A DNA stretch of 61,952 nucleotides, the filler included. It is 3 parts of 3 records of this genome, joined end to end, with 100 filler letters (N's around TTAATTAATTAA, not from the genome) between each part and the next. Parts side by side here need not be neighbours in the genome. Positions count along the whole stretch, not along the records: positions 23,634 to 50,100 come from DRR378314_1230; 2 more parts are not named here. One strand, 5' to 3'. A program made the translations under genes and the position numbers. The notes beneath the pieces were generated by a model. The model saw nothing but the letters and a program-made list of their open reading frames with translations, was not told the origin of the DNA and did no database searches. Every line of letters begins with the position of its first letter. Position 1 is the first letter of the stretch. Of this stretch, positions 30,082 through 53,800 are shown in pieces.

Positions 30082-31336
30082 ATGGTCGCAACATACCTGG
30101 TTGCTCGGCGAAGTCCGCGGGAGATTGGCGTTGTCCGCGACGACCCTGAGAAGGGCACAGCGCAGCTCTTTGCTGTAGAGGTCACGGCGCTTCCCGCCGT
30201 CGAAGGAACTACCGCAAAACTACGAAGCAGGTTAACAGAGAGTATTCGCGAGGAGCTTACAAGAATAAGTGGTATTCAAGTCGAGAAGGAAAAGGTACAC
30301 GTTGGCGCTGGAGAGAAGTGGTGGTGCTGGGGTGCCTATTTCGGGTGCTGCGACTGGCTCTTCCTGACCCCGGGGTTGCAAGCTGCACTCCACACTCAGG
30401 CATAGCACACTCACAAATGATCTACACGATATCCGTAAGTAGATCAGAAAGTAGAATAGAATTCACATTCTTAAAAATAGCAAAGAGACGTGTTGAATAA
30501 TGATGAGGGGCTGTGGTGGGTTCCAGAGAGAGTATGCTTGTTGTAGTTCAGACAGTGGGTGCGAGTATGCGATCCGCCTGCTTTGGATCTTGCATTCGCT
30601 TCATGGCTGGCTTGCGCAAAAATCACTCCTTTGCCAGTCATAAATGTGCAACGAGAGAAAAAGTGTGTTAATAAATTTCGCATGGATAGAAAATCTATCG
30701 TATGCAAGCCGAATTCTCATGAAGGCTACGTGCTGGTTCACGCGGGATCGTGCAGCTTGGGCGACTTGTCGCCGCGTGCATCTTGCCTGGGGAGCCGTAT
30801 TCTGCCTCGCCATCATCACAGGATCACAGCACCGCCATAACCGATACTGACGAAGTACTTTCGAATGCAAAGTCACTGGATGATCTTGTTCTCTGGGAAG
30901 ACGAGCGCGAGGATGTACGCGAAGAGGACACCGTGGCGGTGGGGAACGCGGGCGCAGTGCTCGACGTCGCGTCGCTCCTCGCTGGCGCGCAGGCTGCTTC
31001 GAGCCCCGGTGCGGCGCTGCGGTACGGCCACCACGACGACCTGAACACAGTGGCAGAAGAAGAGCTTGATGCTATCAAGCGAGATATGGATGTGAAGTTT
31101 GAGCAGAACCAGGTGGCGCCGGGCGAGGAAGGCTTCGTGTACGACAAGCAGGTGCGCTGGTGGAACTCGGTCTTCCCTCGGCGCGTTAGGACGCAAAGAG
31201 ATCGTTCGTCCTTGCGCGCACATGCTGTAAGGCTCACGTGCGTCCTCTTCTACGTTGCTGCATGCAGGTCGCGTTTGGCGCGCCAGACGAGGCGAGCGGG
31301 TGGGATTCGTCGTCGGACAGCAGCGCGCTTGCGTGA
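30082..31336 (+). CDS. CEP19: CEP19-like centriolar/ciliary protein, multi-exon
   Basis: The C-terminal signature DDLNTVAEEELDAIKRDMDVKFEQNQVAPGEEGFVYDKQ | VAFGAPDEASGWD matches the CEP19 motif DLN.L...EL...K..MD..FE.N.......FVYD..V.F.......WD. Confidence 0.8.
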
Positions 31337-31593
31337 TCGGGCAGCAAGAACCGGAGAGAACCCGGGCGCGCGGCGATGCCAAGGCGCAGACGAGCACACT
31401 GTGCCGCCGTTCCAGTTTCCGAGCTTTATTGACGAATATGCGCGGCGCTGTGCCAATCGCAACCAAGATAGAGGAAAAGCAAAAACAGCGCGCTCGCGCA
31501 GCGGAAAGGCCAAGAAAAAATATACCAGTCGATACATACACATACGTGCTATCGCAAACCCCGCCCATGGCCCCTCTGCGGGCATCTCCGCAT

Positions 31594-34500
31594 CTATAGC
31601 TGCGAGTCCTCCTTGTACTTGCGGAAGAACCGCTGCATCTTATCCTGCAGCGGCTGGACCTCGCTGGAGCACAGCGAACCGTGTTTGTCCAGTCCGCGCG
31701 CCAGAATCGCCTCCTGGTCGTGCAGCACCTGCACGCGCGCGCACCGCACAGCAACGAAAATCATATTTACACAACATTCGCTTACGTTATGGAAATGCGG
31801 ACGCACGACGCTCACACGATCGGGGGAGGCGGCGGGCGCGCGACTCTCGCTCGGCGCTGCGCTGCGGACGGACCTGGCGCAGCTCGTCGAGCTTCGGCAC
31901 TTCCTCGGGGTTCTCGTCGCGGAACTTGTCGGTGAAGAACGCATCGCGATACATGCGCACACCGCCTTGCACGGCCGCGTCAATCACACCATTGAGCTTC
32001 ATCTGCACCGCACACGGTACCCAGGAAGTGAGACAAGCACTCACGGGTGGGGGGAGAAACCGCGATTGGAGGTAGTACACGCAGAGGTGGAAATCGGGAA
32101 CCGAACTAGTGCAGAGACGACCGCCGTGACCCAACACGAGAAGCCCCTGAGGAAAAGGAGCTTTATCCTCCCCCCCCACTACCCTCTTCCCGTCCCATAC
32201 GCGTGCGCAATGCACTTGTGCGTACCGTGAGGCTTGAGTAGTTTTCTGGCGTTGCGGCAGCGATACAGTCGCGCAGATCTGCGTTGGTGGTTCGCATCGA
32301 CGCGATCGCGTTCTCCACAGGCGTCATCGTGCGCTCTTTGCGCTGGACCACGAGCGCGCGGCGCTTCATCCCGGGGAACATCACGCTGCACAGAGCGGGG
32401 CCGCGGCGGAAGGGCTCCGTGTTAGCACGCGCATGGCGCAGTCCTTCCTCCGCTACGACGTGCATCGGTACAGAGGAGAGAGAGAGAGAGGAACGAAAGT
32501 GCTACCCAGAGAACAGGACGAATGCCAACGTCGCCGAAAAGGACAAGCTCGGTGCGCGCACTAGCGCTTTCGGGCGCTGGCAAACTCACAATTCTGCGCA
32601 TAAGTAACTCCATTGCGTTTCGTTAACGGACCTTTCCTCGATAGTGTACTTGGTCTCCTTCGTGAAGAGGTCCGAGAACTCGTTCACGCGCTCTTCCTTG
32701 CTCTGACCGTGGAAACTCCGCGACATGGTAAACGTGCTGATACGGTCATTTGCGAAGTACTGCTGCACGGACGAGGGAGCTGCACGCACCGTAGAGCGCA
32801 TACCAGCCCGCAGAAACACGAACAGCGGCCACAAGACAAGTGCGATCAGTGTTTCCGCACGTACTATGGGGTAGCATGGGGGCGGTCGACAAGGTCATTC
32901 CCTCCCCGGTACAACGGGACAACAACAGCGCAGAATCGCCTGGGAGTCCGCGCGTGTGACACAAACTGCCGTTGGCTCCAGGAGACACACAGGGCGCGAC
33001 AACGATTCGCAGCGGTTCCCAACAGCGCGCGATTACGGAGGTGCTCGATTCTCCGCCGCGGAGTCATCCGCGTGACGGGAGCGTCGCCTCGCTGAGCGCC
33101 AATCGCAGCGCCTTCCTACCGCTGCTCGTGCGCAGCGTCTCCGCGTACCTCCCGCTGCCACTTCGTTCTCGTGGGCGTCTTTGCACGGCTTCACATTCGT
33201 CACGATCGCCATCATCGCATCGCTCTCCTGCTGCTCCGCGGATGGCTCATCAAGGGACTGGAGCAGCTGAATACCGCTGAGGCGCTTCGCGAACCGCTCT
33301 CTGCACGCGGCGTGTCCCAAAGCAAGGGAGAGCGAAATGGAAAGCAAGAGAGAGAAAGAGAGAGAGATAACGCATCAGCGAGAGAAAACGAGGAGAAGCG
33401 GGAAGAGGAGCACGAACGGGGGAGAAGCGCGCGAGAAGGACCAACGGGCGGCGGCGCGAGGACTGGGCGCGCGTCCGCCGCCGCTCAGCGCCTCACGGCC
33501 ACACACGGCACAGCGCGCGCGAACAGCCGACTACAAAGGGTCCATCGCGACGCAGAGGGCACGAACAGCCGACTACAAAGGGTCCAGTGCGGCGCAGCGC
33601 AAGATGAGCGCGCGCTCGTTCGTGCGGTGCCGCACCTGAAGTCGCCGAGCTTCTCCAGCGGATCGCCTTTGTAGATGTACGCGTTGCCGGACAAGTACGC
33701 GAGCTCAGCCGGGAACCCTTTCCCGTAAAACGCGACGTAGAAGTACTCGCACGGGAACCGCTGCTCGTGAATGATTCTGCAAGCGACGAAGCACGGCGAC
33801 GCGGAAGCGTGAGCAACACCGCGCACACACTCCACAATCCCCTCCCCAACGAGAGACACGGTGCAAACAAAATAGGACCACTGCACTGGTATGTACCCGT
33901 ATTCACACACAGCGTCGCGATGGCTCTTGCTGGACGTGCAACGTACGCTTCGTACAAGCTGGCTTGCTCGCGCAGCACAGGTCCCAGACGCTCATAGTCG
34001 TAGGTTTTGCGGTAGTGCGCGCCGAGCACATCGCACGCGGCGATCGCGCGCTCGAAATCTTTTCCACCGGCAAAGCACTCGATGGCGCGGCGAATCGCCT
34101 GGATTTTCTCGCATTCCGGCGCTTCCAGGGTCACGACCGCGGAATCGGAGCGCACGCGCGTCGTCGCTTCGTCCATCCCATTCTCCTCGTCGTCCCACGG
34201 CAGCATCTCGCTCTCCTACCCGATGGAGAAAAGACGCCACAGCAGCAGCAAAAGCAACACAGAACGAGCAAACCAATGCTTGGTTACAATTCGCGAGGGC
34301 GGCGGGACCGGCGCGGGGATTACTGCTGCGCGCCGGCGCGTTTCGGGCCGTTGCGAAAGGGGGTACATAATCCTCCCCACCCAACCGGACGCGCGCCCTT
34401 GCGGACCGATCGCAGCTCGCGCGGATCCAGGAAAAGCAACACAAAAACGGAACCCGTGCGCACCTTTTCCGCCACAATGCCCGCTTCGACATAGTTGCCA

Positions 34501-37500
34501 CATGAACGGTGCATCTTGTGGAGCTGTCGCAGGTACTTGACGAACAGGTCGTTGCGCTTCGTCTTCTGCAAAAAGTCCAGCACATACAGGTACTGCTTCG
34601 TGGTCTCGTCTTCCATCTCGGGGTCCTTGTCGCGCTTCATACTCGCCAGATCGTAGATCATGTCAAAGAGAGACCCTGCACACCCAACGACACGAGCGCA
34701 CGCAGAGCAGCAAGCGCGAATCAGGAGATGAGGTGCTCCATCTCGGCGATCGGAACCGGAGCGAATCTGCGCACTAGGAGAGCTCGTGCCCCGACGAAAG
34801 CGCGTACGCGTAACATCCTCTCCTTCCTGTTCTGGGGAGCATTTCGTGCGTGATGTCCCGTACTGTGCTCGCCCAGCGAGCACGCGCGTCTGAAGCGCAT
34901 CGAAACTCGACCGCAACATGCTTACAAGACGCAACGGCTAGGCGGGATGAGCGCGCGCGCGCTTCCGCCGCCGCGTACCTTGGTCGTTGATGAACTCGTT
35001 GACACGCCGCATGAACTCCTCCGACGCCGATTGGTCGGTGTCGAGATTGTCGCGCACGCTCTGCGCCAGGGTTGTCCTGAAATGCTCACGAATAAAGGCG
35101 GAATCGGTTTCCGCATCGCAGACGCTCTCGTCGAAAGCAGAGACAGTCTCCTCCTCGACGCTCTTCACGTCGTGCAGCGCCTCGAACTCGCAGCGAAGCA
35201 GATCGTAGTACCGCTCAAACGCGATGCGCTGGAGCGACTCGCGCTTGCGGCACTCGGTGCTGATATACAGGAGATTCCGCGCGAATATCGACACGAAGCG
35301 CGCTTTCGCGCCGCCGAGTTTCCCCCATGCGCTCAGTGCGGTACTGACTGCAGCGTCACGCGGGTCGCGCGCATCGACCGGGTCGCGCGCGCTGCAGAGG
35401 AACCGCCAGTACTTCTGCCGCCCCTCACTGAAGTCCTCGATCGCCAAGAACCGTCCGCGCACCACCGAGAAGCAGAGGCGGACCAGTACTTCCCACAGCG
35501 GTCTATTTTCTCGCGAGTCCGCATCGCCGAAGCGGCTCTCGAGGAGCGGGAGCGCCTTGGCGGCGACCTGCGCGGCGGCGTCGAAGGCGAAGTGCACGAG
35601 GAACGCCCACTGGAACGGGAACAGTCCCGTTCCGTCCTCGGACCGGATAAACTGCTCTGTGCAGCTCAGGACATCGAACACAAACGTGCGGCGCTGTGCA
35701 TCGTCCGCGCACCGCTCCGCGAGATACCGCTCCAGATCTTGCGTTGTGAGCATGGAGAGGATCGACAGCACGCTCGTTCCCATCCGCATCGTGAGTTCCC
35801 CAATATCGATCTTGAGGTTGCAGCGCCCGTTGAGCTGCGCAACGGTTTCATGGTCGACCGAGTGCACAAACGAGACGTCTTTCAGCAGTACATCGCCGAG
35901 AAGGCAGCAGAGATCCCAGTTGGATTTCTCGGTGGGTCGCTGCTCGACAACGCGCACAGTGTCGCACAGGATCTCCAGACACAGCAGCGTCTGCTGCGCT
36001 TCCTCCGTCGTGCGCTCGCCGCCGGCGCCAATGTGCTGCTTAACCTGCGCGCAATCGAACACGGACGCGGTACAGAAGAATGAACGGTTACGGACGCAGC
36101 AAGCACGCGCAGCACATACGCACACCAGGGAAGAGAGCGGAGCGACATTTACGTGCTTCCAGTGTCTCGCTGGGCGACGGCGCCGAGAGTGGGAAATCAT
36201 AACACACAGCGCGCGAGTGGGCCCATACGCGCAACGGCAGCGGAAGAACAGCGCGCTGAAACGCATCCGGCTGTTGCCACACCACCAGTATATACGAAGG
36301 GCCGTTCCACACCGTGCGGGTGTGCAGGGTGACCGTTACGCGCTTGTGTGACCCGAACCGGCCCGCTGCGCGCTCTCGATGACCCGCCCGCGACGCTACG
36401 GGCACGATCCCCGGCGCGACCGTTACACAGGCGATCCAGACACCCGCTACGCGCGCGCCGTGCACGCTCACGACGCCGGCACTACCGCCGGCCTCCGCGC
36501 ATCGTACCTGCTCCATCACCGTTGGAAGGAGAATGTCGCGCGCCGCCTCGCGCTGCCAGATCGAGCTACGCGTGAGCGCCCAGATCACCGCGAGTTTCTC
36601 AATCGTGATACGCGGTTTCTCCTTGTGAATCGCCTCGAGGAACGCCTTTCCGAGCTGCCCCATCTCCACGTCGTCGAAGAATAGGAACAGTTCCTCGTAG
36701 AAACTCGGGAATGCGCGCAGCGTGATCCCTTGCGAAATAATGACCCAGTCCGGCTTCGTCCGCGACATAAGGTCGGTAATCGCGTTCATGAGCTTGTGGA
36801 TCTCTTGCCGGAAGGACGCGTCGTCCTCCTGGAAAGCGCGGACTTTCTCCGTATCGATTTCCTGCACCTCCCGCTGCGGCTTCGTCCACGTGGTTTCATT
36901 GGTAATTGCGTTGTGGTAGTACGGCTTCCCTTCGCCCGTGCGGTGCTCGGTCCAGCCCTCGGGGAGGTCGTCGAGCGCGTCGCCGCCGCCGCCAGCAGCA
37001 GCGCCGGTGATCTCCGGCCCGACATTTGCCACAAAGAGCTTCCGCGACGCGATAATGAGTTTCAGGTGGTACTTGAGCCCTTTGAGGCACTGGCGCAATA
37101 CGCGACTCTTCGCCGTATCCTCGAGGTCGGCAAAGTAGAAGTTGAGCTTGCGCAGAATCGTGCGATGTACATTGGTGTTTGTGAGGTCGCGCTCGATGTA
37201 GTAGTCGAGGAGCGGAAGAACGTTTTTGTACTGTTTCGCCTTCTCATCGCACAATGTCATGAGCAAAAAGACCAGATTGTCAAAGAGGAGATTTTGCATA
37301 TCCTCAGAGGACTCATACTCGTCAAAGATCATAAACATCGCATCGAACACTTCGCGCATGAACTTGATGATCTCGAAGGGGTCAATGTATGTGAACCGCT
37401 TCAGCTTTTCCATGATATCCGGAGGTCTTTGTCCCTTATTCTTCCAATTCAGCATCGAGCGCAGTGTCTCGTTCTGCGTGTGCTTCGTCGACGTTAGGCG

Positions 37501-40500
37501 TGTTCGAACGCGAATACTCTCCTTTGGCTTCAGCTTCATTTTCCCATCAAGGAAATCAAACTTTCCGTTATGCGCAAAGCACTCCAGTCGTTTCTCGCCA
37601 TCGGCAACAACGACTCCCGAATCATCCGTTAGACGAAGATACCCGTACGAGAAGAAATCCACCTGATAGAGAGCGTAAAACGCACGCGCGGAGGAACAAA
37701 GAATTACCAACACGAGGGATTACATCTCGCAGACGCATCTTGGACAAAATCTTCGCCATGAGGTGCATTTCTTCCCATCACGGAAGTGGTGGCGAGCAAA
37801 CGAGAGCACACGAGCAAACCAAGGGGCACAGCGGCGCCGAGCGACCCGTCTTCTCGCCTCCAACGAGCACACGCGACCGCGAGAACGAACGGGAGTACCT
37901 TACTACAACAGGGGCAGGACCTACGCGATTCTTTAGTGTGCTAACCTATCCGTTGTGCGAAAACGGGTGGAATTCTCCCATCGCAGCGATCATCGTTGCG
38001 CGTGCAGACACTGCGAGTTCGATAGAGGAGCTCGCTGCATCCTGGAGCGCTAATGCTCGCCGCACGTGCGTACCTTACTCTTGTGTCCTACACAATGCGC
38101 CGCCTCAATCAACAAATAGCAGCGATCGATGTCGTCCGGGGACAATTCGAGCCGCACAGTCTCTTCCACGTTTGGGTTGTTCACGTGGCGCGAGACGACC
38201 GCGTGGAAGGTGGTCTCTCGCCCTGCTCCCGCGCCGCGTGTGATGCAATTCGGCACCAATTGCCCTCCGGAACCATCATCACACACCACCGAGACAGCGA
38301 GCTGCACGCGCACATCGAACACGCGAAAGAAGGAACACGAGCGCGAGAACGCGAATGGGCGAGATGAACAATGAAGAACATCGCGTGACATCGCCGAGTT
38401 CGCAAATAGCACCAGAAACTTCAAAGTCGAACATGCAGTACTATCTTTCTATGCAAGAAAGATACCGAACAAGGAGATAATGACGATAAATTGTACGGAT
38501 TATACAGGATTCAAATACGTATTCAACAGCGCGCGCTCTCTCTCACACACAAAGCGCAGTATTTTCCGCCAAGTTGATGGCGGGAGAGGCGCGTCCGGAG
38601 CGCGCAAAGAAGCGCGAACAGCTGCAAGGTATACAGCGATTTCATCTGCTACAAGGACAGGTCCTGCGTCTACCGCGCGAGCGTAAGGACTCATTTCCTC
38701 GCTCGCACACAGTGACTCGGTCTCCCGGGCGCTGTCGCGATCCAACTCACCTGCACGTTCTTCGCGGTTTTCTTCATTCCTTGCTGGAACTCTCCTCCGC
38801 AGATCGTTACGTACAAGTCGTTTCTTTCATCTCCAGGCTCGAAGACCTCAGAGAAGTACAGTTTGTGCGCCGTAGACGCGGAAGTGTACTCGGGGAATTT
38901 CTCCGGAATCTCCGCAAAATCACCTGGGCGAAACGCGTCCGCAGCAGTTTGACAGAAACACGATCGTGTACGAAAAAAAAAAACCCCACGAGAATCAGAA
39001 CAACATGCCACGAAGCCAATTGGTTCCGTGCTATCAGAGCCAAGATCGGAATGCTGCGTATGCCATTGTGGCAACTGATCATCAATAATCACAGACTGCA
39101 GCGGACAACATGGACGTTTGGCACTATTGCGAGACGAACGTCGCTGTCGCAGTCGCGCGCTGAGCAGCGGAGCGAGAGCGAGCACGCTGCCGGACGCGCA
39201 GCAGCAGGAATCCGCAAAAGAGCTCCCAGCGGCTCGAACGCGACGCGCTCTCTTCGCGAACCATGCTCAAATCTCCAGGATAGTTCGCGCTTGCTGTCCT
39301 GGAAACAGCGAGAGAAAAACAAACGAACAAACAAACGGCTATTCATCGCCAAAAACGTCATTCAACTCTATCCCCAGCGCGCACCTTGCACACACGTGAG
39401 CCCGATGACCACGCCGATCGATTGCGGAGCGCGCTCGTGATCTTTTCCATTGATCAGGTCCTCGTGGATACGGTGGAATGAGTTCTCCGAGGACGGGACG
39501 TAGATTGGAAGCGCGTCCGGTGAGAACTCATCGCCGTCGACCGTGATCCTGCATTATGAAGTACGTGTCATAGAAGAAGTGCACACGCACGCAAGCAGCA
39601 ATGCGAAGGAGAACAAATTAGCACGCACTTCAAGGCCCGTTGCAATGCGTACGAATCCGCACCGATTCCGCGTGTGCGCTCGAGTGGACAAACGGGCACA
39701 ATCCCGCGATCTCGCGCCCACTGTCTCTGCGTGTGACACCAGCAAGGACACGGCGCGTATCGCTCAAAGAGCAAAGCTGCCATCCACTCGACCTACTCAC
39801 GCTAAGCGCAAGGCAAAGCGCTTGCAACAAACAAGCAAAGAACCAAGCGCTTGCAAAGCAACGAAAAAAGAGTGCGTTGGAGACAATGTGGATGGGGGGA
39901 AGGACCTATCGCGTCCTCTCAACCTGTGCACGTACAATACTATAGAAAGGAAGTCTTGGATGGTGACTCCTATTGTACAAGATATATACAGTACTTACTT
40001 TCTGTCCGAGAAAGATTCGGTGATATTGAATATGCAGCAGCCATACGGCCGGCGGAACGTCGCTGTGTCCGGCGGCGCCGGAGCGGCGGTCCCGCTCGCG
40101 ATCAGCGAGCTTTTCGAGCTGTCTTTGGTCTTCATTGCGCCTTTGCGGTAGATTTTGCACAGAAGTACGAGCTCGGAGTTGTACTCTTCGTGGCCGATGT
40201 CGCGGAAGATCGATTTCAGGGCTCCAATATCGTCATCACGTTCCGGCATACCCGATGCGGTCAAGCTAATCACCACATCCTCCGTGATAAACGTCTCGCG
40301 CAATATCGAGTACAGGGATATGCAGAGATCAGTGGGCTCATTCGCGCTGTACATGCACGCTTTCACATCGAGAAGAAGATGCGTGTTCATCGTCGGCAGC
40401 GCGCCGCTTTCACCTTCCTGCATCGAGGAGGACTTCTTGCCGAAGAACTTGGATTTCGTGCGCTTTTTCAGCGTCTGCATGCGGCTGCGCGACACAACCG

Positions 40501-43436
40501 ATCGATGCTCCGCGAGCTGCACGAGATACACGAGGAAACCATAGCTCACCATGTGAGCGAGGCGCGTTTGGAGCAGCGAGAGGCGACCGGAAGGGCTCCA
40601 GAGGCGAAACCGCATCTCGGATGGCACACGCAGCGAGCAACTGCGAGAAGCAAAAGGCAAACAAACGAAAAGCACCCACGAGAGCCGACGCGCGAGCTCG
40701 CACAAAAGAAACGCACACTTGGGACAAACCACACACTTATGCCCCTACTACATCGTGCTCAAGAATCGTGATGACGTAGTTGGGGAACTGCAGGTACTAC
40801 GACCGCGAGATCCCAGTGATCGCATCGTTCGCCGCAGCATCTCTCCCTTACTCCCCTTCTCCCGCTCATTAGCGCGTGAGTGCAGCACAGAAAAGCGCAG
40901 TGTCGACGAAACGTAGGTATGTTCACACATTATGCGTTGAATGTGAAGAAAAGAAGCACGTTGGCTCACTCTGCGCGCAGACGGGAAGCTTGTGGCCCAT
41001 CCGTCACTCATTCGCTGCAGTTCACCGCAAGCCGCAACAAACGCACCTTTTTCAGCGTTAATAGCGCCTCGGACGGGCCCTGCATGACCATATCCCCCGT
41101 TGCAGAGTTACGCGGAGCTACATAGGTCCCGTTGAGAATATCGAGCACTTGGCGGTACATCAGCGCGCGCACCGACCGCGAATCCTGCTCTTTCGTGATT
41201 CGCCGCCGATTCTCGTGCAGAATGCGCACGAGCTCGCCGAAGCACGCGAGCTCGTGCCCGCTGAGCGCCGCGCGCCGCTCGCTCACCAACTCGTTCCACT
41301 TGTCGTCTTCGTTCAGCGCGCGGTCGACTTTGGCCTTGAGTTCCGCGGGAAATTCAAAGAGCTTGTCCGAGTCGAGGCTTTCGCCGCGTTCTTCGCTCTG
41401 TACCTCGTCTTCTTCAATGACCTCGATGCCTTCCGGACCTTCGGGGCGTTTCCACGTCGTTTCTTCGGTAATTACGTTGTAAAAGTACACGCGCTGATCA
41501 TCTGTCCCGTATTCCATCCACCAAAGCGGCAAATTGTCCGCTTCTGCAAGCGCGATTTGTGGAGGGAGAGGCGAAACGGATCGGCGAAATTCTTCGTCAT
41601 TCACATACGCCTTCTTCTCATACTTTTCAACAATGAAGTCGATCTTCGTATCGCGCGAGGAGTTTGGAATCGGTTTCTTGTGCTCTTTCGCTTCATAGAA
41701 CCGATTCGCGTAGAAATTCCCCACGCTCTTCATCACGCGAACTTCTTGCTCTGTCCACTTATCCATCGTCACGGACTTCACACGCGATACATGAACCCCG
41801 AGACTGGACGAGATAGCGCAAGAAAGAAGGAAATGTGATCGAGAGCCACGTACAAAACGTAGAATTATCAGTGCACGCAATATGCTGGGAGAGGAATGTG
41901 TGGTAATCACAAAACGGAGTAATCAAGGGAACGACGACGACTTCCCGTTCCGCTCCATCTGTGTCTTTCTCTCGCACTCCGCATTTCTTGAACACATTCC
42001 CTGTGCTTCCAACAAGGGGAACACCAAAAAAATGTAAGAGATAAGAGCGCATGCAAAGGAAGCGAGGCAACGGAAAAAGTTGACCAAAACCCAGAGAGAG
42101 AGAATGGGGCAACCGTGTTCCGCTTTCGCACAACGAGTACGTAAAACTCGCGCGAGAGCATTTCTCGCACGCAGCGCGCTACAAGGAGTGCAGAAAACGC
42201 TTCCCTCGCTCCATTTCGTCGTTTTTACAATCATTCGCACCTGCGGTGAACTCCTGAACACTCGATGCAAATGAAGCATCCATGGGTAGTAGTTGCCCAC
42301 TTTGGCTCTGTCGGAAACGTAGTGACAGCATCGCACAGTTCCGCGTTGCAAAAAAAAAACAAAGAAGGATTAGCACGAAAGTATGATACATCGACGTACG
42401 TATGAAGATAAATGTGACGAAAAGCGATCGGGGATCCTTCCCCGGGAAATCTCACGACCGCAAGATTTTCAACGCTTCGGAAATGACCTAACAATAATCT
42501 CAGCTCGCACATATCTCAACTCTGATGGTGAGTAACGAAGATAATGCCGATGCCTTTCGCGTCGTCTCGTGCAAACCAGTCCACACTCACAAGCCAATCC
42601 ACTGACTGTTGCGTGGAGAACCGCGCCCTGCTCGGGAACATCACTTGGATGATGGCTGCGACCAGAGAAATTGAGAGGCAAAAACCATCTTTCCACAGTT
42701 TTTCACCCACAAAAACGCTATCTTGCGCCCCAGGAGCACCGCGTGCATCAAGATCTACAGACGGACACGCCGGATACGACAAACCACGACTGCGCGTAGC
42801 ACGTATGTGAAACAGACTGTACTGTGCAGAGATGGGAGCGCCAATCCATCCCTGCCGATACAACCGCTCGCGGAAGTGACGCTATTGACATGCACTAGTA
42901 CGTGGTGGACCGTCTCCGTGTGCCGGGAGGGCAGGCAATCGTTCTGGAAGAGCAGAGTCGTATACGAAGTGCTTCACCGCAACCCATACCCGACCAGCGG
43001 CTGCCTGGTGCTTTGCCGAATACACTGCCCAGCTCTCTCGCAAAGACGCCGCAGGCTAAGCAAAGCGGCCTACTTTATCGCATACTTTCGAAAAGAAAGC
43101 GTCGTTCTTCGTCCTCACTACCATGGGGGTTGCAGTACGAGAAAATCGCGCGATTCGTAGCTCGCAGCGATGCATTCGGGCGTATGAGCGCTGGGAACTT
43201 TCTTGATCCTGCTCTGCTCGAAGCGCGGGGAGAACGTGGTGGAGCGAGCTAGCGCGCGTGTCCCCGTGTCTTTTCCCGAGGCGCGCCGCGCCTTTCCATC
43301 CCCCCTCCGTACCTTTACTTCCACAGTCAGCGCAGATATCGTTGTTCGGCTGTTGCATCAGCTCTTCAAGGACGAGGCGGTGCAGCTTGGCACGCGATAT
43401 CGTACGGCGTCCGCCGTTCGCTGCGTGCTCCGCCAT
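31594..43436 (-). CDS. DOCK-A/B-type Rho-family GEF with N-terminal ArfGAP and WW domains and an internal WW domain, many exons
   Basis: Domains in order: ArfGAP CADC-x16-[41 protein letters not shown]; DOCK_N (HLLLDVKAC...FITEDVVI...FRRPYGC); DHR-1 C2 (ERNDLYVTICGGEF); second WW LPEGWTEHRTGEGKPYYHNAITNETTWTKP; DHR-2 (YLRQLHKMH, EYFYVAFYGKGFP, MTPVENAI, LNGVIDAAVQGGVRMY). Further upstream exons are possible. Confidence 0.9.
33520..33586 (+). repeat. Intronic direct repeat, 2 x 25 nt (period 42)
   Basis: CGAACAGCCGACTACAAAGGGTCCA at 33520-33544 and 33562-33586. Confidence 0.9.
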
Positions 43437-46400
43437 CGTGGAGTAGAGCGTACCAGATAGTAGATCTGCCAGGAAGGACGCGGTGGGGAAACGGTATGTG
43501 GCGTACGCAACGTCAAGCAAGTTTTCCAGAGCAGAGAACGACAGCATGCGCAGCACGCCCACGTTCAACTGCAACCATCAGTGCTCCACGTCCATGGGCA
43601 CACCGGGGAGAAGCGAAGCTATCGCTCGGCTATTCGAACCGTGCACGAAAGCTGCGGAAGGAGTCAGGCTGGCGGCGCGGTCAAGGCGCGTCGCGGGCTA
43701 CAACGTCGCAGACGCAGGCGAGCTCGCCAGTGTCAGGAAGGTTTCGCGCGCACAGGCGGCTTGTATACTACAACCGAGGGATAGAGGACGATTTCTAAGC
43801 TGTAGAATAGACGTAAGATGCATCATCTGTGATTTCAAACAGCTAAAGCTCGACCACCGCGCAAAGAAAAGATAAGGCGGCTGCAGTTTTCGAGCGCGGT
43901 GGTGACGCGTTGGACACAGCGGCGGCCATGCTCGAAGAGGAGGTTCTGGGCTTTCCCCCTCGTTCGCAAAAAACGCTGCAACACAGGCCAATTATAGCGC
44001 CGCGGTCGACAATGCTCTTCCGTGCTACCCATCGCAATACGATTCAAACATCTTTTCAAGAATACAGTGATGTGTGCGAGGATAGTATGCGGCAACACGG
44101 CGCTGCAACCAAGGTTCCGGTGCAGCGCTGCAGCCCGCGGCAGAGAAACAGCCCCGCAAGGCTACCAAGGACTGCAGCAGCGAGGCGAGCGTCGAGCGCT
44201 GATGCACCGCTGCGCCCAGCACGCCTCGCCACCGGCGGCCACATTCCCGTGCTCTGCCCTCCCTTAGACCCCATTGGTAATGCAGGAATTGCGGTCGCAG
44301 TCGTATGATGTGATGCGATAGGCACGCACCTCGCAAGTGCTGCCCTTTGCTGCTGGTGGGGCAGGAGGGGGAAGGTGCCGCGGAGCGTAGCTCTCGGAGC
44401 GCGTTTCCACCCAGACAAACAGTGCGGCGTCGCGTGCGCTGGAGCGCTCGTCACGGGTCAATCAGCGACTGCTGCTACGAGGTGGAGCGCTAACAAGGCC
44501 AAAACAGCACTCGTACTGCTTTCTGAACCATCGTCCAATTGCACAGCTGGTGTACCGCAAGTATTGCTAGGGGTGCACGCAGCGCAACGCACGGAATTCC
44601 CGTGAGGAAGCAGAGGAATCAAATACCGATACGTATAATAGCAAGTATCTAGGGTTGAGCTGTCACGGTGTATCAGTCAGAAGTCTTCCTCTGAACCTTG
44701 CGCACTTCCAACGCCATTGTGCGCTGTACTGTATTTGTCTTTCGACAGCGATTTGTTTCAGAGCAGACGCGTCTGTATATCATCTTCTCGTGAAAATCGC
44801 AAGTTTGCTTCTCAAGATTGCTCCTCGCGAGAGAAAACGCGGCTTTGCTCTTGCCACTGGTGCAGCTGCGCGCTAGAGAGTACAAGCTATGGTCTGCTAA
44901 TGTAGCTGCGAGGCAGGAGGGTTGAAACCCTATCATCTTAACTTCGATCAACGGTACAGCGGTGTAACTGTCGTCAGCGGCCATCACCGCTGGCCTAGCT
45001 CTGGGCTCTCGCTGTAGGCTGGGCGCTTGGTTAGCGCGCGCGTTCACTTCTCGGGCGAGCCCTGCCGATCCCGGCGACTTCCTTTCTGCTTGAGCCATCG
45101 CTGCGGACGAGCGCTGCGCGTGCGTCAAGCGTATCCGACTTCTCCACAGCACCTCGGTTGTCCCGGTGCGCCTTTCGGAGTAGCCTGCGGCGCTTGGTAG
45201 CAAGTACTTGCCGGCAAACCGGGAAAGGAGAAGACTTGCGCCAGCAAGAATTTCGGTATATCCTGTGCCAGCTTCTGTGATTGAGCTCGTTTAGGCAGCG
45301 TTCGGTGCTGGGAGTGCCTTTGTCTTCGGAGATCGAGTTTGCGAGTGCTGGCGCACGGACTCTGCGAAGATGGGGAGCGCGGAGTGGTCTGACCGCGTCC
45401 GCATAATGGACGAAGGCGGTCGGATGTGGCGGTTCAAGCAAGGTGCGCGCCGTCGGCGCTTGGCTGCTGATTTGTGCCAGAATTTGCTTGTACTTCTCCT
45501 CTGTGGAAATTTTATGCCCGCAAGAACAGTAACTATGTCCACTTCGACGACTTGGTTCATGCTGTAGTTCGGAAGCGCCATCATGCGGCGGGTAGGCGGT
45601 CGCGTTTGCGCGGCGCAGCAGCGCAGTAGTGGTGGTGCGCGCGCTTATGGTTCTGTGCGGGGGTTAGCCCGTGGTCAGTCAACGGGCTCTGGGAACACGA
45701 CTGTCGTCGCGGTAACGGCCGAGCAACGGCGTTGTACGAGCACCGAGCGCACCCCGCATAGCTGCTGGCACACCGCAATGCCCACAGCAGCGCCCGCTCA
45801 TGCCGTATATAGCACAAGCGAATGAAAGGATAGAAGCATACAAGTAGAAAATATTACCGGAGTGAATCATCCCTTTGTATTGGTGGGGAAATGGTTTAGC
45901 TTGCGAGCTGCCGGAGCGACCGCGCTTTGTCTGTCGAGAGCGCGGCTGTCGGTGCGCGCGCGCGCGCGTGTCTCTCTGTACCGCGGCCGCCTACCTTGCG
46001 GCGAGCCTGCGCGCTTTTCCTTGCCGTGCTGGGGCCGTGCGCGTGGACGTGGGTGGAATATGAGCGCCTTTCCTCGTCGTGATTTGTAAGATGAGGGTAT
46101 CATGGAGCGTAATGCCGTATCGAGTATGTGCAGGGAGCTTGGGAGCGTGCGCTGCCGCCTTGTTCCTGTCGGGAGCGTGCTTGTGCGCTTGGCCGCGCTG
46201 GCGCACACCGTCCAGGTGCCGTGCTGGCCCTCACCGCGTCCGCGTCGCGGCTGAAGCGCAGCCCGCTGCACGGTGAAGCCTTCGCGCCGCGGCGCGCGTA
46301 GACCAAGCAACCTACCTCGCGCGCGCGCGCGCGTGCATGGCGTTCTGTCTGCCGCGGTCCCATTATACCCAGAATGTGGCTCAAGAATTATATATATTTC

Positions 46401-48101
46401 GTAGCTGCTACCGATGGGCCTTTCGGCGACTTCCCGTCGCCATGCGATGCGAGGGTGTGTCGCGAATCGCCCGTCTACCGCGTTGGCAGCTTCGCGCGCG
46501 CGTTCCTGGTGACGCCTACCGCTTTCCGTCCCGGGATCCAGCGAGCGACGCTTTCCGGCAGCGCTGCGCTCAGCGTCGCCTTGTGTAGCTGGTTTCACCC
46601 CCCCAATCCTTGCTAGTTCTCACGCGGGATGCGGTATTTATGACCACTTGTCATTGTAATCGTGCAGGCATGGTTCGCCAAACTGTTTTGGAACGCCTCA
46701 GTGGACTTCAGGATACGTTTCTCCTCGACGACGATGACAACGTGTTTTGCCCTGTGGAAGGGGCCTTTGCCGGTCTGGCAGCGGGCAATACGTACCTCAT
46801 CATGTCCACCGACGACGGTACCGACGACTCCAGGCCGCAATGTACGCCCTACCGGCCGCGCCATTATCTGGTACCGCGTGCTTACCGTTTGCAGTGAACC
46901 CCTCGCGTTTCTTTGGGGACATTCTCAATCTCTCGACGCAGTGCTTAGGCTTCCTTTGCGCTGTGTTCACGTGGGTGGCGTGCGTGCGCGTTCTTTTGTC
47001 TGCACTCTTCACGGAAACCAGCCTCAACGTCAGCTTTCGTCCTTGCTTGTGCTGTGCCGAGCGCGCGCGTACCTCGTTGTCAGCTCCTTGTCTCTCGCAG
47101 GTGCCTGCGTTGCGCTCGTTCAGGCGATAAATATGATGCACTAGAGACGCAGACGATGTTTTATTTTGTTTTCATATGCAATTGTGTCTCTACGTTTTGT
47201 TGTAAATCAGTGGACCGGTGGTATTGGCCCGGTGCTTGATTAGTGCGCGCGAGCTTACGTGCCCGTTCCCTTGCGCGACACGTCTTCTGTGCCCGCGCTC
47301 CCGGCAGCAAGCAACAAGAAACGCCCAGCTCGCGCCACCGCTGTGGGTACGACAGCAACTCCTGGTACGTTTTTCAAGCCCATGTCAGCTAGAAATAGTC
47401 GAGTTGATGATGGGAAAAATCGAACCAGGGAAATAGTTGTCGTGTCAGCAAACTGTCCACTGTGCTCGGTTGCGGTGCACTTCAGCAGCGTCTCCTGCTG
47501 GTATGCCGCGCGCGCTGCACGCTCCATCGCGCAAACCTCCCGCCGTAAGCGTCGAAAATGGTCTATGCGGATGCGAAGATTGACTGAATTTCTCTCGGAC
47601 TGTGAATTACCGCGGTGGCGTAATCTATGTCGCGCAGATCGTGCGAAGCCAGCTGGGCGTGCCCGCGGAATGCGTTCGTCACGTTCCTTGAATGACGAGA
47701 GCGATTTCGGAGCGCCAACGCTGGCGGCGGCTCTCGGCGTCGAGCCGCGCCAAGGTGGCAAAGGGAGTCGCGCGCGGGGTGCGTTGACTGATACCATGCG
47801 TTGATGATGTAAAAAATATAGCCGATGCACGCGGAATGGAGTTGCAGCTCCACATTTTGCTCTGCTTGGAGACGCAAGAGGCGCAGCAAGCTTCGCGTCT
47901 CCTGGTTGCACCGAGCTGTTCTACCTGCACTCCATGGCGAGTCGCTGCCGCTTTGGATGGCGGTTTGAATCACTCTTCGTCGGTGTTCCCCATTCAGCAC
48001 TGCGGATGTAAATAAGCGTACACCATGCTCTGCTTCTCTCTGGTCTGCTCCTCGTTCTGAACCCGTTTGCTCACTCTCACCTGCTTTTTGTCCTCCCCCC
48101 A

Positions 48102-50100
48102 ATGGGTGGCCGTGCACGGCTTCGTGTAGGCCGCGGCGAGATTCGTAGATCGCGTACGGTCACGGATGTCGACGACTTTGGCGGGCGACGCGGCGCTACA
48201 GCGGACGCAAAGAGCATGCGCAAGTCGCGCACACTCACCGATAGGTTGGACTTTGACGGTGGCCATGGCGGTTTACGCCCGTCAGGCTCTGTGGTAGACT
48301 CCAAGGACTGGCTCTCTGGGTTCAAGAAGATGGTCGATGATCGCGATGCGCCGGGCGTTGGTGGGAGCGGGAAAAAGGCAGTAGAAGTCACGAAGATCAA
48401 ACTGTCACTGGAGCAAAAGTCTCGCGCGCGCCGACTGTACCTCATGCGATGGAGGCGCGAGGCCAAAGAGCGCAACGCGAATATTATTGACGCCTTTGGT
48501 TGCGTCGCGGTGAAGATCATGGGTGCCGAGCATCTCATGGAGCGCGTTGACGGGCGCGAGCCGGATGCGTACTGCGTGGTTGAGACGGACTCGCTCGAGT
48601 GTCGCACGACGGTGATCCCTTCGTCCGCCGACCCAAGATGGGACGAAGAGTACATGTTTACGATCACGAACCCGTCGGAGCGCCTCCGCCTCACGCTCTT
48701 CGACGATGACCCGGCGCTTGACCTTCCGCGTGAGCTCGGGTCGTTCGACTACTCGATCACCCAGCTGCACGACGGCGAGCCAAAGTGCGTCATCTCGCGC
48801 TTGCGCGGTGTCGAGGGTGCGGACCTGTCGCGTGTTTCGATGCGCCTGCTGTTCTTCTATGCTGTGGACGACGACGAACTGCTGCGGCTGGCGCCCGCGC
48901 CGCTCCGCTCCAAGGCCGCTGCGGCGGCGGCCGAAGCTGCGCAGAATGCCACGGAGTCGCACATAGCCGGCCCGCGACCGGGATTTTCCCGCGCGCCATT
49001 CCGCTCCGGTGGGACAAAGGACGCGAAAAAGCGCGCCAAATTCTACTCGAATCGCGCGTCCGCCGCTACAACGACCGTATCGGGCGTCATGAGCACGGGG
49101 CACCCGCTCGGGACCGTCGACGTGCGCGGCAAAGCTGGCAGGCGCAAGGGCAGCGCGATGTCCGCAGACAGCCCCGGGGCCGTTGGTGGCATCGTGGGCG
49201 AGGTCAATCACGTGGCGCACTGGCGAAAGGATGCGGCCGTGCGTGGTATTCGCACCGAGCGCGCGTCGGCGTTTGCGTACGTGCGCGTCACGCGCGGACG
49301 CGGCCTCGCCGACGTGGAAGGCATTGAGCCGGACGCGTTCTGCGTGCTCTCGGTCGGGCGCGAACGTCAGAAGACGAACATTGCGTTCGACGGCGCACCA
49401 TGGGACCAAGAGTTCTACTTCACGCTGTCGAACACGACGGCAACGATCCGGCTCGAGTGCTTTGCCGCCGTGCCGGACGCTGCAGCTCCGAGCGTCCAGC
49501 TGGGCGCGACCGAGCTCCGGATCGCCGATCTTGTTGCCGGTGGAGCCGCCGAGGCGGCGCGAATGCGCCCGCTCCTCACGCGCGACGGCTCCACGCGCGC
49601 CGTGGGCCTGCACGTATTCCTCTTCGACGTGTTCGAGAACCGCTTCATCAATGCGGTTCCTGTTGACGAGGCCGCGCCGCCGCGTGCCGGCTCGGCACGC
49701 CCAGGCGCGAAGAAGCGCGGCCGCGGCGGGCGCCGCGTCGCCGCGGACGCCGCGGACGTGCGGTACGACGACGACGAGTACGTGGACGAGGACGAAGAGA
49801 TGCCAGCGGCCGCGCCGGCGTGGAAGCCGCGCGGCGTGCGCGCCGCACCTGCGTCAGGCGGAGCGGGCGCAGCGTCCGCGCGACCGGCGGCGGGCGGTGG
49901 CGGCTCGGACGAAGACTCCGTGCGCTGGTCGATGATTATGCGCAAGCAAGGCGGCGGCGCCGGAGGAAGCGCGCCCGCTCGCGGCGGCAGCGGGGCGGCG
50001 TCGGTGCGAGGTGGCAGCGGGGCGGCGTCGGTGCGTGGCGGCAGCGGGGCGGCGTCGGTGCGTGGCGGCTCGAGCGGCGGCGGCGGCGGCGGCGGCGGCG
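48102..50100 (+). CDS. Tandem C2-domain protein, 3'-truncated by contig end
   Basis: C2A: VAVKIMGAEHL...PDAYCVV...RTTVIPSSADPRWDEEYMF...LTLFDDD. C2B: YVRVTRGRGL...PDAFCVLSVG...QKT...WDQEFYF. A Gly/Ala-rich tail follows. Confidence 0.85.
49980..50100 (+). repeat. 27-nt coding tandem repeat (RGGSGAASV x3) followed by (GGC)n
   Basis: Units at 49980-50006, 50007-50033 and 50034-50060, then a GGC run to the contig end. Confidence 0.9.
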
Positions 50101-50200
50101 NNNNNNNNNNNNNNNNNNNNNNNNNNNNNNNNNNNNNNNNNNNNTTAATTAATTAANNNNNNNNNNNNNNNNNNNNNNNNNNNNNNNNNNNNNNNNNNNN
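50101..50200. other. Artificial contig-joining linker
   Basis: 44 N + TTAATTAATTAA + 44 N, with an abrupt switch from GC-rich intron-containing DNA to AT-rich bacterial DNA. Confidence 0.97.
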
Positions 50201-50727
50201 CCTATAAACAGGCACGGATTTGCGGCAAATCCCAAAATTCACTAAGTTAAGCCTTACTAAAAATCCGAGATTATATCCACAAAATGGTACACTACTCAAA
50301 AAATCACTGAAAAAAAATCAATTGAAAAGTTTATCCTGAAATCAAGGCTTTCATTTTGTCCTGCTTGCGGGACGAAAATGTGAAGCAAGAGGATAGCACG
50401 CAAGCGCGCCGCTATTGATTTATTTTCCTTCGGAAAAGCCCAGTTTTAGCGTGTTTTTTAAAAATATTGGTTATTAGTATTTACATCATTTTTGACGAAA
50501 AAAGGCTTCCAGCCCAGTAAAACCAATGGATTTTTGACTAAAAAACGATAATTTTTAGTGACCCTTAGATGTGGATTTCATTCCACTTTTAACCCTGCTT
50601 AGATTTCTGGAGTATTCCCATTTTTAACGGAAAAATGCGTTCAACCCAGTAAAATCAAGGAATTTTTAGCGTAAAAATTAGAAATCATTCGTTCATTTGG
50701 GACGATAATGTCTTTGTCATTTCTTAA

Positions 50728-51075
50728 TCATTCCCCTTTTTTGGTCTTCTTTTCCTCCCGATAGAATAGGTTTAAATGGTCCATCAAAGCCTCTTCCCCA
50801 ACTGGCATCAATCGGTTGGCTATGGTCATCGCTTGATGGATGAATTCTTTTTCGTTCCTGTCCATTACATCGTCTGAGCCTAACTCTGGATTTATTGCCC
50901 GCATGGAAAGGTATAGCAATGCACGAACGGTCAATAGTAAATCTGCATGACCGTCAAGATAAAAGAACGTAGGCTGGAACTTGTTCTTAAACCATGGATG
51001 GGGAACCAAGGTAGGGGAATGGTCATTTGCGAGAAGTCTTAAATCCTTTATTAGCTTTTCTTCGTTTGGGTTCAT
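50728..51075 (-). CDS. Hypothetical protein, paralogue 3 of the repeated ~100-aa domain
   Basis: MNPNEEKLIKDLRLLA...DLLLTVRALLYLSMRAIN...FIHQAMTIANRLMPVGEEALMD. The ATG at 51075 lies 4 nt after the upstream stop. Confidence 0.8.
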   Translation of the reverse strand: MNPNEEKLIKDLRLLANDHSPTLVPHPWFKNKFQPTFFYLDGHADLLLTVRALLYLSMRAINPELGSDDVMDRNEKEFIHQAMTIANRLMPVGEEALMDHLNLFYREEKKTKKGE

Positions 51076-51079
51076 GGAT

Positions 51080-51430
51080 TCATTTTTTGTTTTCAAGTTT
51101 CGATAGCATTTCATCCAGTTTGTCCAAGTAGTACATTTGGCTATCCGGAAGGATGCAAAGTACCAGTTCCAATACTTGGGTAATACTATCCTCCTTTGAT
51201 GCATTATTGTTTTTAGGGGCCAACATCATCCCATCACCATCAAGGGCGAATACACAAAGCTGTAATAGACTTCTGATCTGCATCAAAAGGTGGTTGTTGT
51301 CACTGACCTCGAAGCACACATGGTTTCCATTGGGATCAGCAGCATTTTTGTTTCCAAGGAGCCCGGTAAGATTTTTTCTAAGCTCTTGTATCTCCTTCAA
51401 GGTTTTGAGTTGCTTTTTTTTGTGTTTCAT
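51080..51430 (-). CDS. Hypothetical protein, paralogue 2 of the repeated domain
   Basis: 116 aa: ...HLLMQIRSLLQLCVFALD...KEDSITQVLELVLCILPDSQMYYLD. Confidence 0.85.
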   Translation of the reverse strand: MKHKKKQLKTLKEIQELRKNLTGLLGNKNAADPNGNHVCFEVSDNNHLLMQIRSLLQLCVFALDGDGMMLAPKNNNASKEDSITQVLELVLCILPDSQMYYLDKLDEMLSKLENKK

Positions 51431-51459
51431 TGTTCAGATTATTGGGTTGACAATCATGC

Positions 51460-51804
51460 TTATTCCTTCAAAAGGAGCTTTTCTATTCGATCGTAACTGT
51501 CCAATTGGTCATCCGGGAGAATATCAATGACCAACTCCAGTATGGTGATCACCGCATCATCCTTGGATAGAAAGGGAAGTCTTGGGGAGTCCAGTTCGTT
51601 TTCATTGTCTATGGTGGACATGCATAGCCTTAACAGGCAAGAGATGACATATCGAAGTTCTGAATTGTTTTCCACCTTGAATACCACTTCTTGGGCCTGT
51701 GGTTTATCCTTCCCATGATATCTTCGTTTTCTGGGGTTCAACAAACCGATTACCTTGTCCAATAGTTCCTTATCGTTGCTTTGGCCTTCTTCGTTCTTTT
51801 TCAT
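51460..51804 (-). CDS. Hypothetical protein, paralogue 1 of the repeated domain
   Basis: 114 aa: ...ELRYVISCLLRLCMSTID...KDDAVITILELVIDILPDDQLDSYD. Confidence 0.85.
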   Translation of the reverse strand: MKKNEEGQSNDKELLDKVIGLLNPRKRRYHGKDKPQAQEVVFKVENNSELRYVISCLLRLCMSTIDNENELDSPRLPFLSKDDAVITILELVIDILPDDQLDSYDRIEKLLLKE

Positions 51805-51814
51805 GACTTAATTG

Positions 51815-53032: not shown

Positions 53033-53039
53033 TCCGATT

Positions 53040-53056
53040 GTATAGATATTCTATAC
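53040..53056. promoter_or_regulatory. Palindromic candidate operator GTATAGA-TAT-TCTATAC
   Basis: Perfect 7-bp inverted repeat between the divergent HEPN and HTH genes, with an extra half-site TTCTATAC at 53081-53088. Confidence 0.6.
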
Positions 53057-53158
53057 TAATGTATAAAATAAATACTCATTTTCTATACAGATTTAATAAA
53101 TTTTTATATAGATGTACGTAAAATCTATCTTTATGTATCAAAATTTTACATTATTAAA

Positions 53159-53374
53159 ATGACAGACCTAGGATTATATTTGGCCAAAAAGTCCATCAAT
53201 AAAGCGGAAGTGGCGAGAAGGACCGGAATCAGTAAATCAAGGATAAGTCAATTAAGTTCCAACCCTACCACGAAACTACGAGCAGAGGAACTCTACCTTA
53301 TATCATTGGCCATTGATGTAGACCCCTGTGAAGTATTCAAGGAATTGTATGGGGATGTGAAACTTCCAAATTGA
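53159..53374 (+). CDS. XRE/Cro-family helix-turn-helix transcriptional regulator
   Basis: 71 aa MTDLGLYLAKKSINKAEVARRTGISKSRISQLSSNPTTKLRAEELYLISLAIDVDPCEVF, a classic XRE HTH. Confidence 0.9.
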   Translation: MTDLGLYLAKKSINKAEVARRTGISKSRISQLSSNPTTKLRAEELYLISLAIDVDPCEVFKELYGDVKLPN

Positions 53375-53644
53375 CCTTTTGCCTCGGTTAGAATATTAGT
53401 TTGTCTCTGATTCGAAGTTGGCGACAACATGCTCACTGTTTTAGATTTCCAATCAGCAAAAAAAGTGTCAGATTATAGTAATAACAATTATAGACTCAAT
53501 ACTCGAGTTATATAAGCAGTAAAATGATGATTTTTATGAATATAGCGATGTCCCAACTGGGATAAACTTATAATGGGTATGTAAACCAATCCAAAAATTA
53601 ACAAATCGAGTAGAATAGAGTTAAATATTGTTAAAAAACGTAGT

Positions 53645-53699: not shown

Positions 53700-53712
53700 C
53701 TATTAATACTAG

Positions 53713-53786: not shown

Positions 53787-53800
53787 AAACTTTGCGGGTG

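Follow-up and report, generated by a model that had tools for sequence, protein, structure and literature searches.

An ArfGAP-WW module joined to a DOCK-type exchange factor in one spliced gene of a protist-like eukaryote

ARAP proteins combine an ArfGAP with a RhoGAP domain, and thus pair the ArfGAP with a Rho GTPase-activating protein and not with a GEF (guanine nucleotide exchange factor). The pairing of an ArfGAP with a Rho-family GEF in one polypeptide is documented for GEFs of the Dbl type in Thecamonas, Entamoeba and Mycetozoa, the architectures being CH/DH/PH/PH/ArfGAP/PH in dictyostelids and CH/DH/PH/ArfGAP in XP008858600 from Entamoeba, while DOCK proteins are described as a conserved core that occurs by itself or has one further domain, SH3 or PH (PMC5499878, in the available part of that survey). 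In animal cells, a complex containing the Arf GEF cytohesin-2/ARNO and Dock180 (available text of PMC3599651) and the conserved GIT/PIX/PAK signalling module (available text of PMC2581894) have been described. Here we report on a minus-strand gene in a window of 61,952 bases (the whole stretch of DNA that was analysed), in which an ArfGAP domain and a WW domain are joined to the front of a DOCK protein. The order of domains is ArfGAP, WW1, linker, DOCK_N, DHR-1 C2, a TPR region with an inserted WW2, and DHR-2. An Arf-to-Rac relay carried by one chain is, in our judgement, a reasonably probable explanation of this fusion.

One spliced gene across the ArfGAP-DOCK junction

Exon 41047-41803 encodes residues 64-316 of the protein, that is the C-terminal half of the ArfGAP domain, WW1, the linker and the first 28 DOCK-homologous residues (from Gly289). 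Since the ArfGAP half, WW1 and the first DOCK residues thus lie in one genomic exon, the fusion is not an artefact of joining exons. An earlier note on this DNA, made from its letters alone, had placed such a shared exon at about 41050-41800. The exon is real and holds these three elements, but the string YVAPRNSATGDMV, which was quoted there as the DOCK_N helical region, corresponds to what directly follows the helical region in DOCK-A/B proteins and not to the helices themselves.

The message was followed in a single public sequencing run from one study, the type of which is guessed to be RNA and is not on record as RNA. The run contains 0.45 of the words sampled from 33700-43600; the exonic share of this query is about 0.49, and the closeness of the two values counts for a single spliced message. 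When the run was placed on 30500-45500, one spliced contig of 5,899 nucleotides with 0 mismatches to the genomic contig was obtained. It omits 15 listed introns, whose CT..AC ends on the plus strand are GT..AG on the strand of the gene, and all 15 listed joints, 41803|42241 among them, can be placed on GT..AG. Two further joints are unlisted; one of them is that of the intron 42308-43312 (joint 42307|43313), which we infer from GT..AG in the DNA and which fits the length of the contig. The spliced contig is best explained as derived from complementary DNA, because the introns are absent from it at splice-site boundaries, yet present in the genomic contig. It is also evidence for the single transcript by which the note had proposed to check the fusion, with the type of the run as a guess.

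The gene body covered by the spliced contig extends over 31413..43465 on the minus strand in 17 exons; these and all other features of the gene are given in plus-strand coordinates. From the 5' end, the exons are 43313-43465, 42241-42307, 41047-41803, 39999-40516, 39385-39548, 38751-38923, 38074-38301, 36508-37662, 34979-36044, 34464-34675, 33947-34215, 33636-33776, 33149-33300, 32632-32779, 32226-32385, 31874-32002 and 31413-31728. With the inferred intron included they sum to 5,808 nucleotides, 91 short of the 5,899 of the contig (5899-5808), and as cover by the contig is seen in the bin 44027-44527, the missing 91 nucleotides point to one more exon of the 5' untranslated region (5'UTR) within that bin, on the same strand. 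This exon has 20 candidate positions with a GT donor, the best donor being that of 44330-44420. No upstream in-frame ATG arises with this best candidate, and 4 of the 20 would create one. The start codon is likely the ATG at 43436-43434, whose A is position 43436, the very end coordinate proposed before. From there the joined exons read as one open reading frame (ORF) of 1865 residues to the stop codon at 31596-31594 (coding sequence 31594..43436, minus strand), followed by a 3'UTR of 181 nucleotides.

An assembly chimera is very unlikely, because the genomic and the spliced contigs agree base for base. It could also be argued that the fused message is a minor product of read-through or assembly, and that the cell mainly makes ArfGAP-WW and DOCK as separate proteins. 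The joined form is indeed backed only by a single contig, taken from a single run whose type is guessed; a contig that spans two genes does not establish a single transcript, and stand-alone PH-ArfGap-WW-WW proteins exist (P0035). Against such a separation, no gene boundary is seen where it would have to lie, the C-terminal half of the ArfGAP, WW1 and the first DOCK-homologous residues being contiguous in their genomic exon with no stop, the ORF is unbroken over 1865 codons, and the two contigs are identical at every compared base. We regard a mainly separate production of the two parts as highly improbable. The claim that the ArfGAP-DOCK fusion is real is hence confirmed by one exon that spans the junction, one spliced, RNA-derived contig and one ORF: it is one gene and no artefact of a gene model.

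Domains of the fusion protein

Pfam was run on 14 stop-to-stop ORF pieces of the minus strand, 10 of which had a match at E<=0.01. ArfGap matched three successive pieces, which tile the 117-position profile (positions 3-24, E 0.0024; 22-46, E 1.7e-7; 41-116, E 4.2e-17). The domain occupies residues 22-135 (41590..43373) and is split by two introns, which read in the DNA as canonical GT..AG introns, one behind ...CADCGSK and the other behind ...SGVHR. Joining on GT..AG reproduces exactly the string that the earlier note had quoted for a complete zinc finger, with its catalytic Arg present. The zinc finger is formed by Cys35, Cys38, Cys55 and Cys58 in the spacing CxxC-x16-CxxC, and the arginine finger Arg63 (42245-42243) stands four residues past the last Cys, as is characteristic of the ArfGAP family (PF01412). 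A profile of our own, built from 28 ArfGAP domains, aligned to residues 22-135 (152 bits, E 2.9e-49), and the alignment is interrupted only once, by a gap of one residue. Judged by its sequence, the ArfGAP domain is complete and its catalytic hallmarks are intact. Among solved structures, the best matches of its C-terminal half are the SMAP1-like 2iqj (E 9e-12) and SMAP1B 2crr (1.6e-10), followed by ACAP1.

WW1 (residues 155-184, 41443..41532; Trp159, Trp181 and Pro184) lies on the same Pfam piece as the last ArfGap part and scores 29.9 bits (E 5.6e-7) against the cut-off of 26.9. WW2 (residues 910-939, 36877..36966; Trp914, Trp936 and Pro939) is very canonical and reaches 45.6 bits (E 7.1e-12) against the same cut-off. 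In both, a spacing of about 22 residues separates the two Trp, and a Pro closes the domain, as is typical of PF00397. The stretch of the TPR region that contains WW2 has no counterpart in the sequence of P0151, the nearest DOCK relative described below, in a comparison by eye. The PDB matches of WW1 are the WW domains of PRPF40A, PRP40 and TCERG1, and the best ones of WW2 are PRPF40A (E 4.5e-14), TCERG1 and PRP40; by sequence, the two domains thus appear closest to the PRPF40A/FBP11, PRP40 and TCERG1 type. The WW domain inside the TPR region was absent from the earlier note. The distance of about 750 residues between WW1 and WW2 suggests a bivalent partner. In a motif scan of the 1865-residue protein no PPxY or PPLP motif was found, and a PLPP motif was seen at residues 142-145, 10 residues upstream of WW1. 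The protein ends 4 residues after the match of DHR-2 lobe C and has no proline-rich C-terminal tail of the kind found in DOCK-A/B, with 0 PxxP motifs after residue 465 in the same scan. Since there is neither PPxY nor PPLP, only one PLPP just before WW1 and no such tail, the ligands of the WW domains are probably on other proteins.

The nearest DOCK relative found is P0151 from EukProt (1704 residues), which shares 26.5% identity over 1557 columns with residues 358-1864 of the model. In P0151, a weak SH3_1 match (residues 31-79, E 0.003, below the Pfam cut-off) precedes DOCK_N, which starts at residue 104; CAOG_00399 of Capsaspora (P0154) has a weak SH3_1 match and a layout like that of P0151, and vertebrate DOCK3 entries list SH3_2 (PF07653). 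The SH3 domain that characterizes DOCK-A/B proteins had no match on any of the 14 Pfam-scanned pieces of the window protein. The placement of ArfGAP and WW at the usual N-terminal SH3 position, which had been proposed from the letters alone, therefore holds on comparison with P0151 and vertebrate DOCK3. Nor did Pfam detect a DH/RhoGEF domain in these 14 pieces: DHR-2 is the GEF module, and the protein is not a fusion of the Dbl type.

What stands in the place of the SH3 domain might have another use than that of an off-switch. The ArfGAP could be mainly an Arf-GTP-binding targeting or regulatory module, which replaces the input through the ELMO Ras-binding domain or relieves autoinhibition, hydrolysis being incidental or slow, which would make the protein an effector of Arf. 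DOCK-A/B proteins use their SH3 domain for the ELMO-dependent relief of autoinhibition (PMC8063744, in the part at hand), and it is this domain that was not detected here. Arf GAPs are moreover reported to act both with and without dependence on GAP activity (PMC6358971, in its available sections), and the Arf-family GTPase Arl4A to bind ELMO (Patel et al. 2011, as cited in the available part of PMC8358228). The four Cys residues, Arg63 and the full length of the ArfGAP are nevertheless kept, which is unexpected for a pure binding module, though compatible with one, and we consider such a role unlikely.

Between WW1 and the DOCK-homologous part lies a linker, acidic and then helical, at residues 185-288 (41131..41442), with 26 D+E and 16 K+R by composition count. 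It occupies the place of the DOCK-A/B helical region that contacts ELMO; in DOCK2 this region is among the parts bound by ELMO1 (PMC8063744, in the part at hand). A comparison of residues 184-320 with the DOCK helical region by hhalign was not significant (probability 0.6% global, 4.4% local). In a single-sequence AlphaFold model of the exon 41047-41802 alone the mean predicted local distance difference test score was 42.1, too low for use, and the helices of the linker were predicted at low confidence. A stretch of 15 residues within the linker (residues 233-247, 41254-41298) is like the vertebrate DOCK3 helical region between SH3 and DOCK_N.

The DOCK_N-homologous region extends from residue 289 to about 572 (38838..41130) and starts inside exon 41047-41803. 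Our own profile of 14 DOCK-A/B N-termini aligned residues 289-673 of the model to profile positions 159-516 (E 2.3e-65). The Pfam DOCK_N model (PF16172), a mark of DOCK-A/B proteins, scored only on the exon after 41047-41803, that is 39999-40516, with 66.8 bits against a cut-off of 27 (E 2.3e-18). DHR-1 (DOCK-C2; residues about 573-742, 37468..38837) was recognized in two pieces (profile positions 1-31 and 108-186, E 7.5e-5 and 8.2e-5), which fall below the cut-off because introns split the domain. It is followed by the DOCK TPR/ARM region (residues about 758-1379, 35094..37422), which TPR_DOCK matched in two pieces (E 4.7e-37 and 1.1e-5).

The catalytic region of DHR-2 (residues about 1419-1861, 31609..34675) was delimited by Pfam pieces of lobe A and lobe C and by BLASTP to P0151; lobe B was not detected on the Pfam-scanned exon pieces. 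The BLASTP alignment to P0151 spans DHR-1 and runs to the C-terminus (model residues 358-1864 against P0151 residues 300-1701, E 9e-148), so that, taken with the Pfam pieces, DHR-1 followed by DHR-2, the hallmark of the DOCK family, is present. A 43-residue exon (31874-32002) aligns to residues 1529-1570 of DOCK2 (6tgb_A) and sets Val1789 (31972-31970) on Val1539 of DOCK2, which is the nucleotide-sensing valine of the alpha10 insert (PMC8063744, in the part at hand). All five PDB matches of this exon are DOCK2 or DOCK5. This result, together with the 66.8 bits of DOCK_N against 27, supports the assignment of the DOCK part to the DOCK-A/B kind at the level of sequence.

The surrounding contigs and the search for related proteins

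The 61,952-base window consists of three contigs with linkers of the form N44-TTAATTAATTAA-N44 between them (23534-23633 and 50101-50200), which have stops in all frames. The linkers split the window into separate molecules, and arguments from neighbourhood are thus confined to 23634-50100, the middle contig, on whose minus strand the fusion gene lies. Interrupted reading frames and a GC content of 0.52-0.67 are found both there and in the first contig (1-23533). The third (50201-61952) has long, uninterrupted and intronless ORFs, among them one for a pyruvate phosphate dikinase (57815-60535) and one for a xylose-isomerase-like TIM barrel (53891-54757), as well as a tRNA (53713-53786), which is the sole Rfam match. 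Owing to its GC content of about 0.40 and its long intronless ORFs the third contig looks bacterial in sequence, and the assembly appears to be a eukaryote mixed with at least one bacterium. The fusion gene is itself eukaryotic: protist-like, intron-rich and with a GC content of about 0.55.

On the middle contig, the plus strand of 48012-50100, opposite to that of the DOCK gene, carries a gene in which Pfam finds two C2 domains (C2, E 3e-19); it continues as a Gly/Ala/Ser-rich repeat and is truncated by the end of the contig. A second contig of the spliced run (2137 nucleotides) covers 45131-45443 on the minus strand and continues beyond 45443, and corresponds to the 3' end of an upstream minus-strand gene; it is distinct from the DOCK contig, whose 5' exon falls in 44027-44527. 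At 18656-22336 on the minus strand of the first contig, there are exons of a cation channel of the two-pore or voltage-gated type, which carries a pair of EF hands besides two Ion_trans domains; this is a separate contig of a GC class equal to that of the middle one.

Database searches for further ArfGAP-DOCK proteins were shallow and vertebrate-biased. A word search with exon 41047-41802 among longer proteins gave no scored match among 1710 candidates. The same exon yielded 1490 HMMER matches at E<=0.001 among 1.84 billion representatives. Among the best 150 of these, the top ranks were WW-repeat proteins, the matches of ArfGAP type had at most 791 residues, and no best-scoring stretch (one per match) ran from the ArfGAP past WW1. 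Pfam on 38 of the best 150 found ArfGap in 34, ArfGap together with WW in 2 and a DOCK domain in none. The DOCK exon 36508-37662 had one match among 5738 candidates from longer proteins, which was P0151. When P0151 was used as the query, the 120 listed of its 385 matches were nearly all vertebrate DOCK3 and none of these 120 lists PF01412, which says little on protists. Scans of metagenome contigs and GTDB genome contigs found no relatives; in the ESM Atlas, the fusion exon had no usable match and the TPR exon matched only generic DOCK clusters.

In the literature, judged by titles and abstract openings, no ArfGAP-DOCK fusion was found, and in the supplement of PMC5499878, in its available part, the two occurrences of the word 'arfgap' both belong to DH architectures. 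The earlier note had called the architecture unfamiliar from model organisms. This agrees with the present, shallow searches for the ArfGAP-DOCK combination; ArfGAP with a Dbl RhoGEF has already been published for the Dictyostelium group and Entamoeba (PMC5499878, in the part available). The fusion of a RhoGEF with an ArfGAP is therefore known; one whose GEF is of the DOCK type is, as far as we have seen, not. The ArfGAP-WW pair occurs as a module elsewhere (P0035, P0073), and the PH-ArfGap-WW-WW family may, by its sequence, be the source of the N-terminal module of the window protein.

A proposed Arf-to-Rac relay, and the likeness of the fusion protein to known systems

As read from its sequence, the chain has an intact ArfGAP, two WW domains, a C2 of the lipid-binding type and an intact DHR-2. 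We propose that, on a membrane, the ArfGAP would engage Arf in its GTP-bound state and DHR-1 would bind lipid, and that this contact would set DHR-2 beside a Rac-like GTPase, which it would load with GTP. The same encounter would trigger hydrolysis of the GTP on Arf, which would make Rac activation local and self-limiting, and partner proteins rich in proline would be drawn in through the WW domains. Such a chain would do in cis what animals do with separate proteins, namely ARNO/Arf6 with DOCK180-ELMO and the ArfGAP GIT with the Rac GEF PIX. The interpretation offered in the earlier note is partly supported. The architecture that it described stands, as does the exchange of domains at the SH3 position, while an Arf turned off and a Rac turned on by one polypeptide would be a putative function. 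That WW would stand in for SH3 in binding ELMO is a conjecture: both WW domains are closest to the PRPF40A/FBP11, PRP40 and TCERG1 type, and of the two, one sits deep within the TPR region.

Several points weigh against the relay. The DHR-2 lobe and DOCK-C2 pieces, scored exon by exon, are each under the Pfam whole-domain cut-off. Support for the joined message is one contig of one run, with its RNA type guessed, and contigs are blind to isoforms; a shorter ArfGAP-WW or DOCK-only product may exist beside the fusion. The searches described above detected no orthologue of this architecture, and thus give no sign of the conservation by which a selected fusion is usually recognized. Finally, organisms are reported that possess DOCK but lack any Rho-family GTPase (PMC5499878, in its available part), so that a Rac substrate is not to be assumed. 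The same survey reports canonical DOCK proteins in ten species without Rac and suggests further activities of DHR-2, which speaks for an alternative in which the DOCK part acts on another member of the Rho family, or independently of GEF activity, and Arf is coupled to something other than Rac; substrate specificity is, besides, not readable from alignments of the window protein. DOCK_N, the DOCK2 and DOCK5 structures as the best PDB matches (5/5) and the kept sensor valine fit, in contrast, the Rac-specific A and B subfamilies (PMC8063744, in the part at hand), and we hold a target other than Rac to be decidedly improbable.

The Arf-to-Rac relay may be taken one step further, in a form that we put forward as possible though doubtful. 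The protein would be an ELMO-independent DOCK, in which the fused ArfGAP senses Arf-GTP directly, in the place of the input that animal DOCK-A/B proteins receive through RhoG/Arl4-ELMO. This would amount to a hard-wired Arf-to-Rac relay with a timer of its own, and proline-rich factors of actin assembly would be tied to it by the two WW domains, which resemble those of FBP11 and PRP40. If this holds, the protein would be the first DOCK to have more than the bare core or the core plus one SH3 or PH domain, as well as a 'Rosetta stone' fusion, which would imply that Arf-DOCK coupling predates animals or recurs outside them.

Crosstalk between Arf and Rac in migration and engulfment is known, and in the cells studied the link depends on scaffolds (ARNO-GRASP-DOCK180, GIT-PIX). 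Genetic evidence for the functional coupling of both switches would come from an ArfGAP-DOCK found in nature as one chain, which would also be a compact system for measuring the order of Arf inactivation and Rac activation. The fusion shows, moreover, that DOCK GEFs, described as architecturally conservative (PMC5499878, in its available part), can be rewired at their regulatory N-terminus, which bears on the origin of ELMO dependence. Its value is limited by the lack of a found orthologue and by domain shuffling of GTPase regulators, which is common in protists.

Among known proteins, the window protein resembles DOCK-A/B (DOCK1-5, P0151, P0154), with which it shares DOCK_N, DHR-1 C2, TPR/ARM and DHR-2 in the same order and the sensor valine. 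It differs from them by ArfGAP and WW instead of SH3, by the extra WW in the TPR region and by the lack of a proline-rich C-terminal tail, and homology of its linker to their ELMO-contacting helical region was not demonstrable by hhalign. With SMAP-type ArfGAPs (2iqj, 2crr), the best match among solved structures by match score only, it has in common an ArfGAP at the very N-terminus, whereas its remainder is a DOCK GEF. PH-ArfGap-WW-WW proteins (P0035, 403 residues; the fragment P0073) have an equal ArfGAP-to-WW spacing and 29-30% identity to exon 41047-41802, but their WW domains form a tandem pair, a PH domain precedes the ArfGAP, and a DOCK part is missing. The Dbl-type RhoGEF-ArfGAP proteins of protists likewise unite a Rho-family GEF and an ArfGAP in one chain; theirs is a DH/PH module with the ArfGAP C-terminal to it, while the window protein has the unrelated DHR-2 and an N-terminal ArfGAP (PMC5499878, in its available part). 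In GIT-PIX and in ARNO/Arf6-DOCK180, as in the window protein, Arf regulation is physically coupled to Rac/Rho regulation (available parts of PMC2581894, PMC5625764 and PMC3599651); these are complexes of separate proteins, whereas here both regulators belong to one chain.

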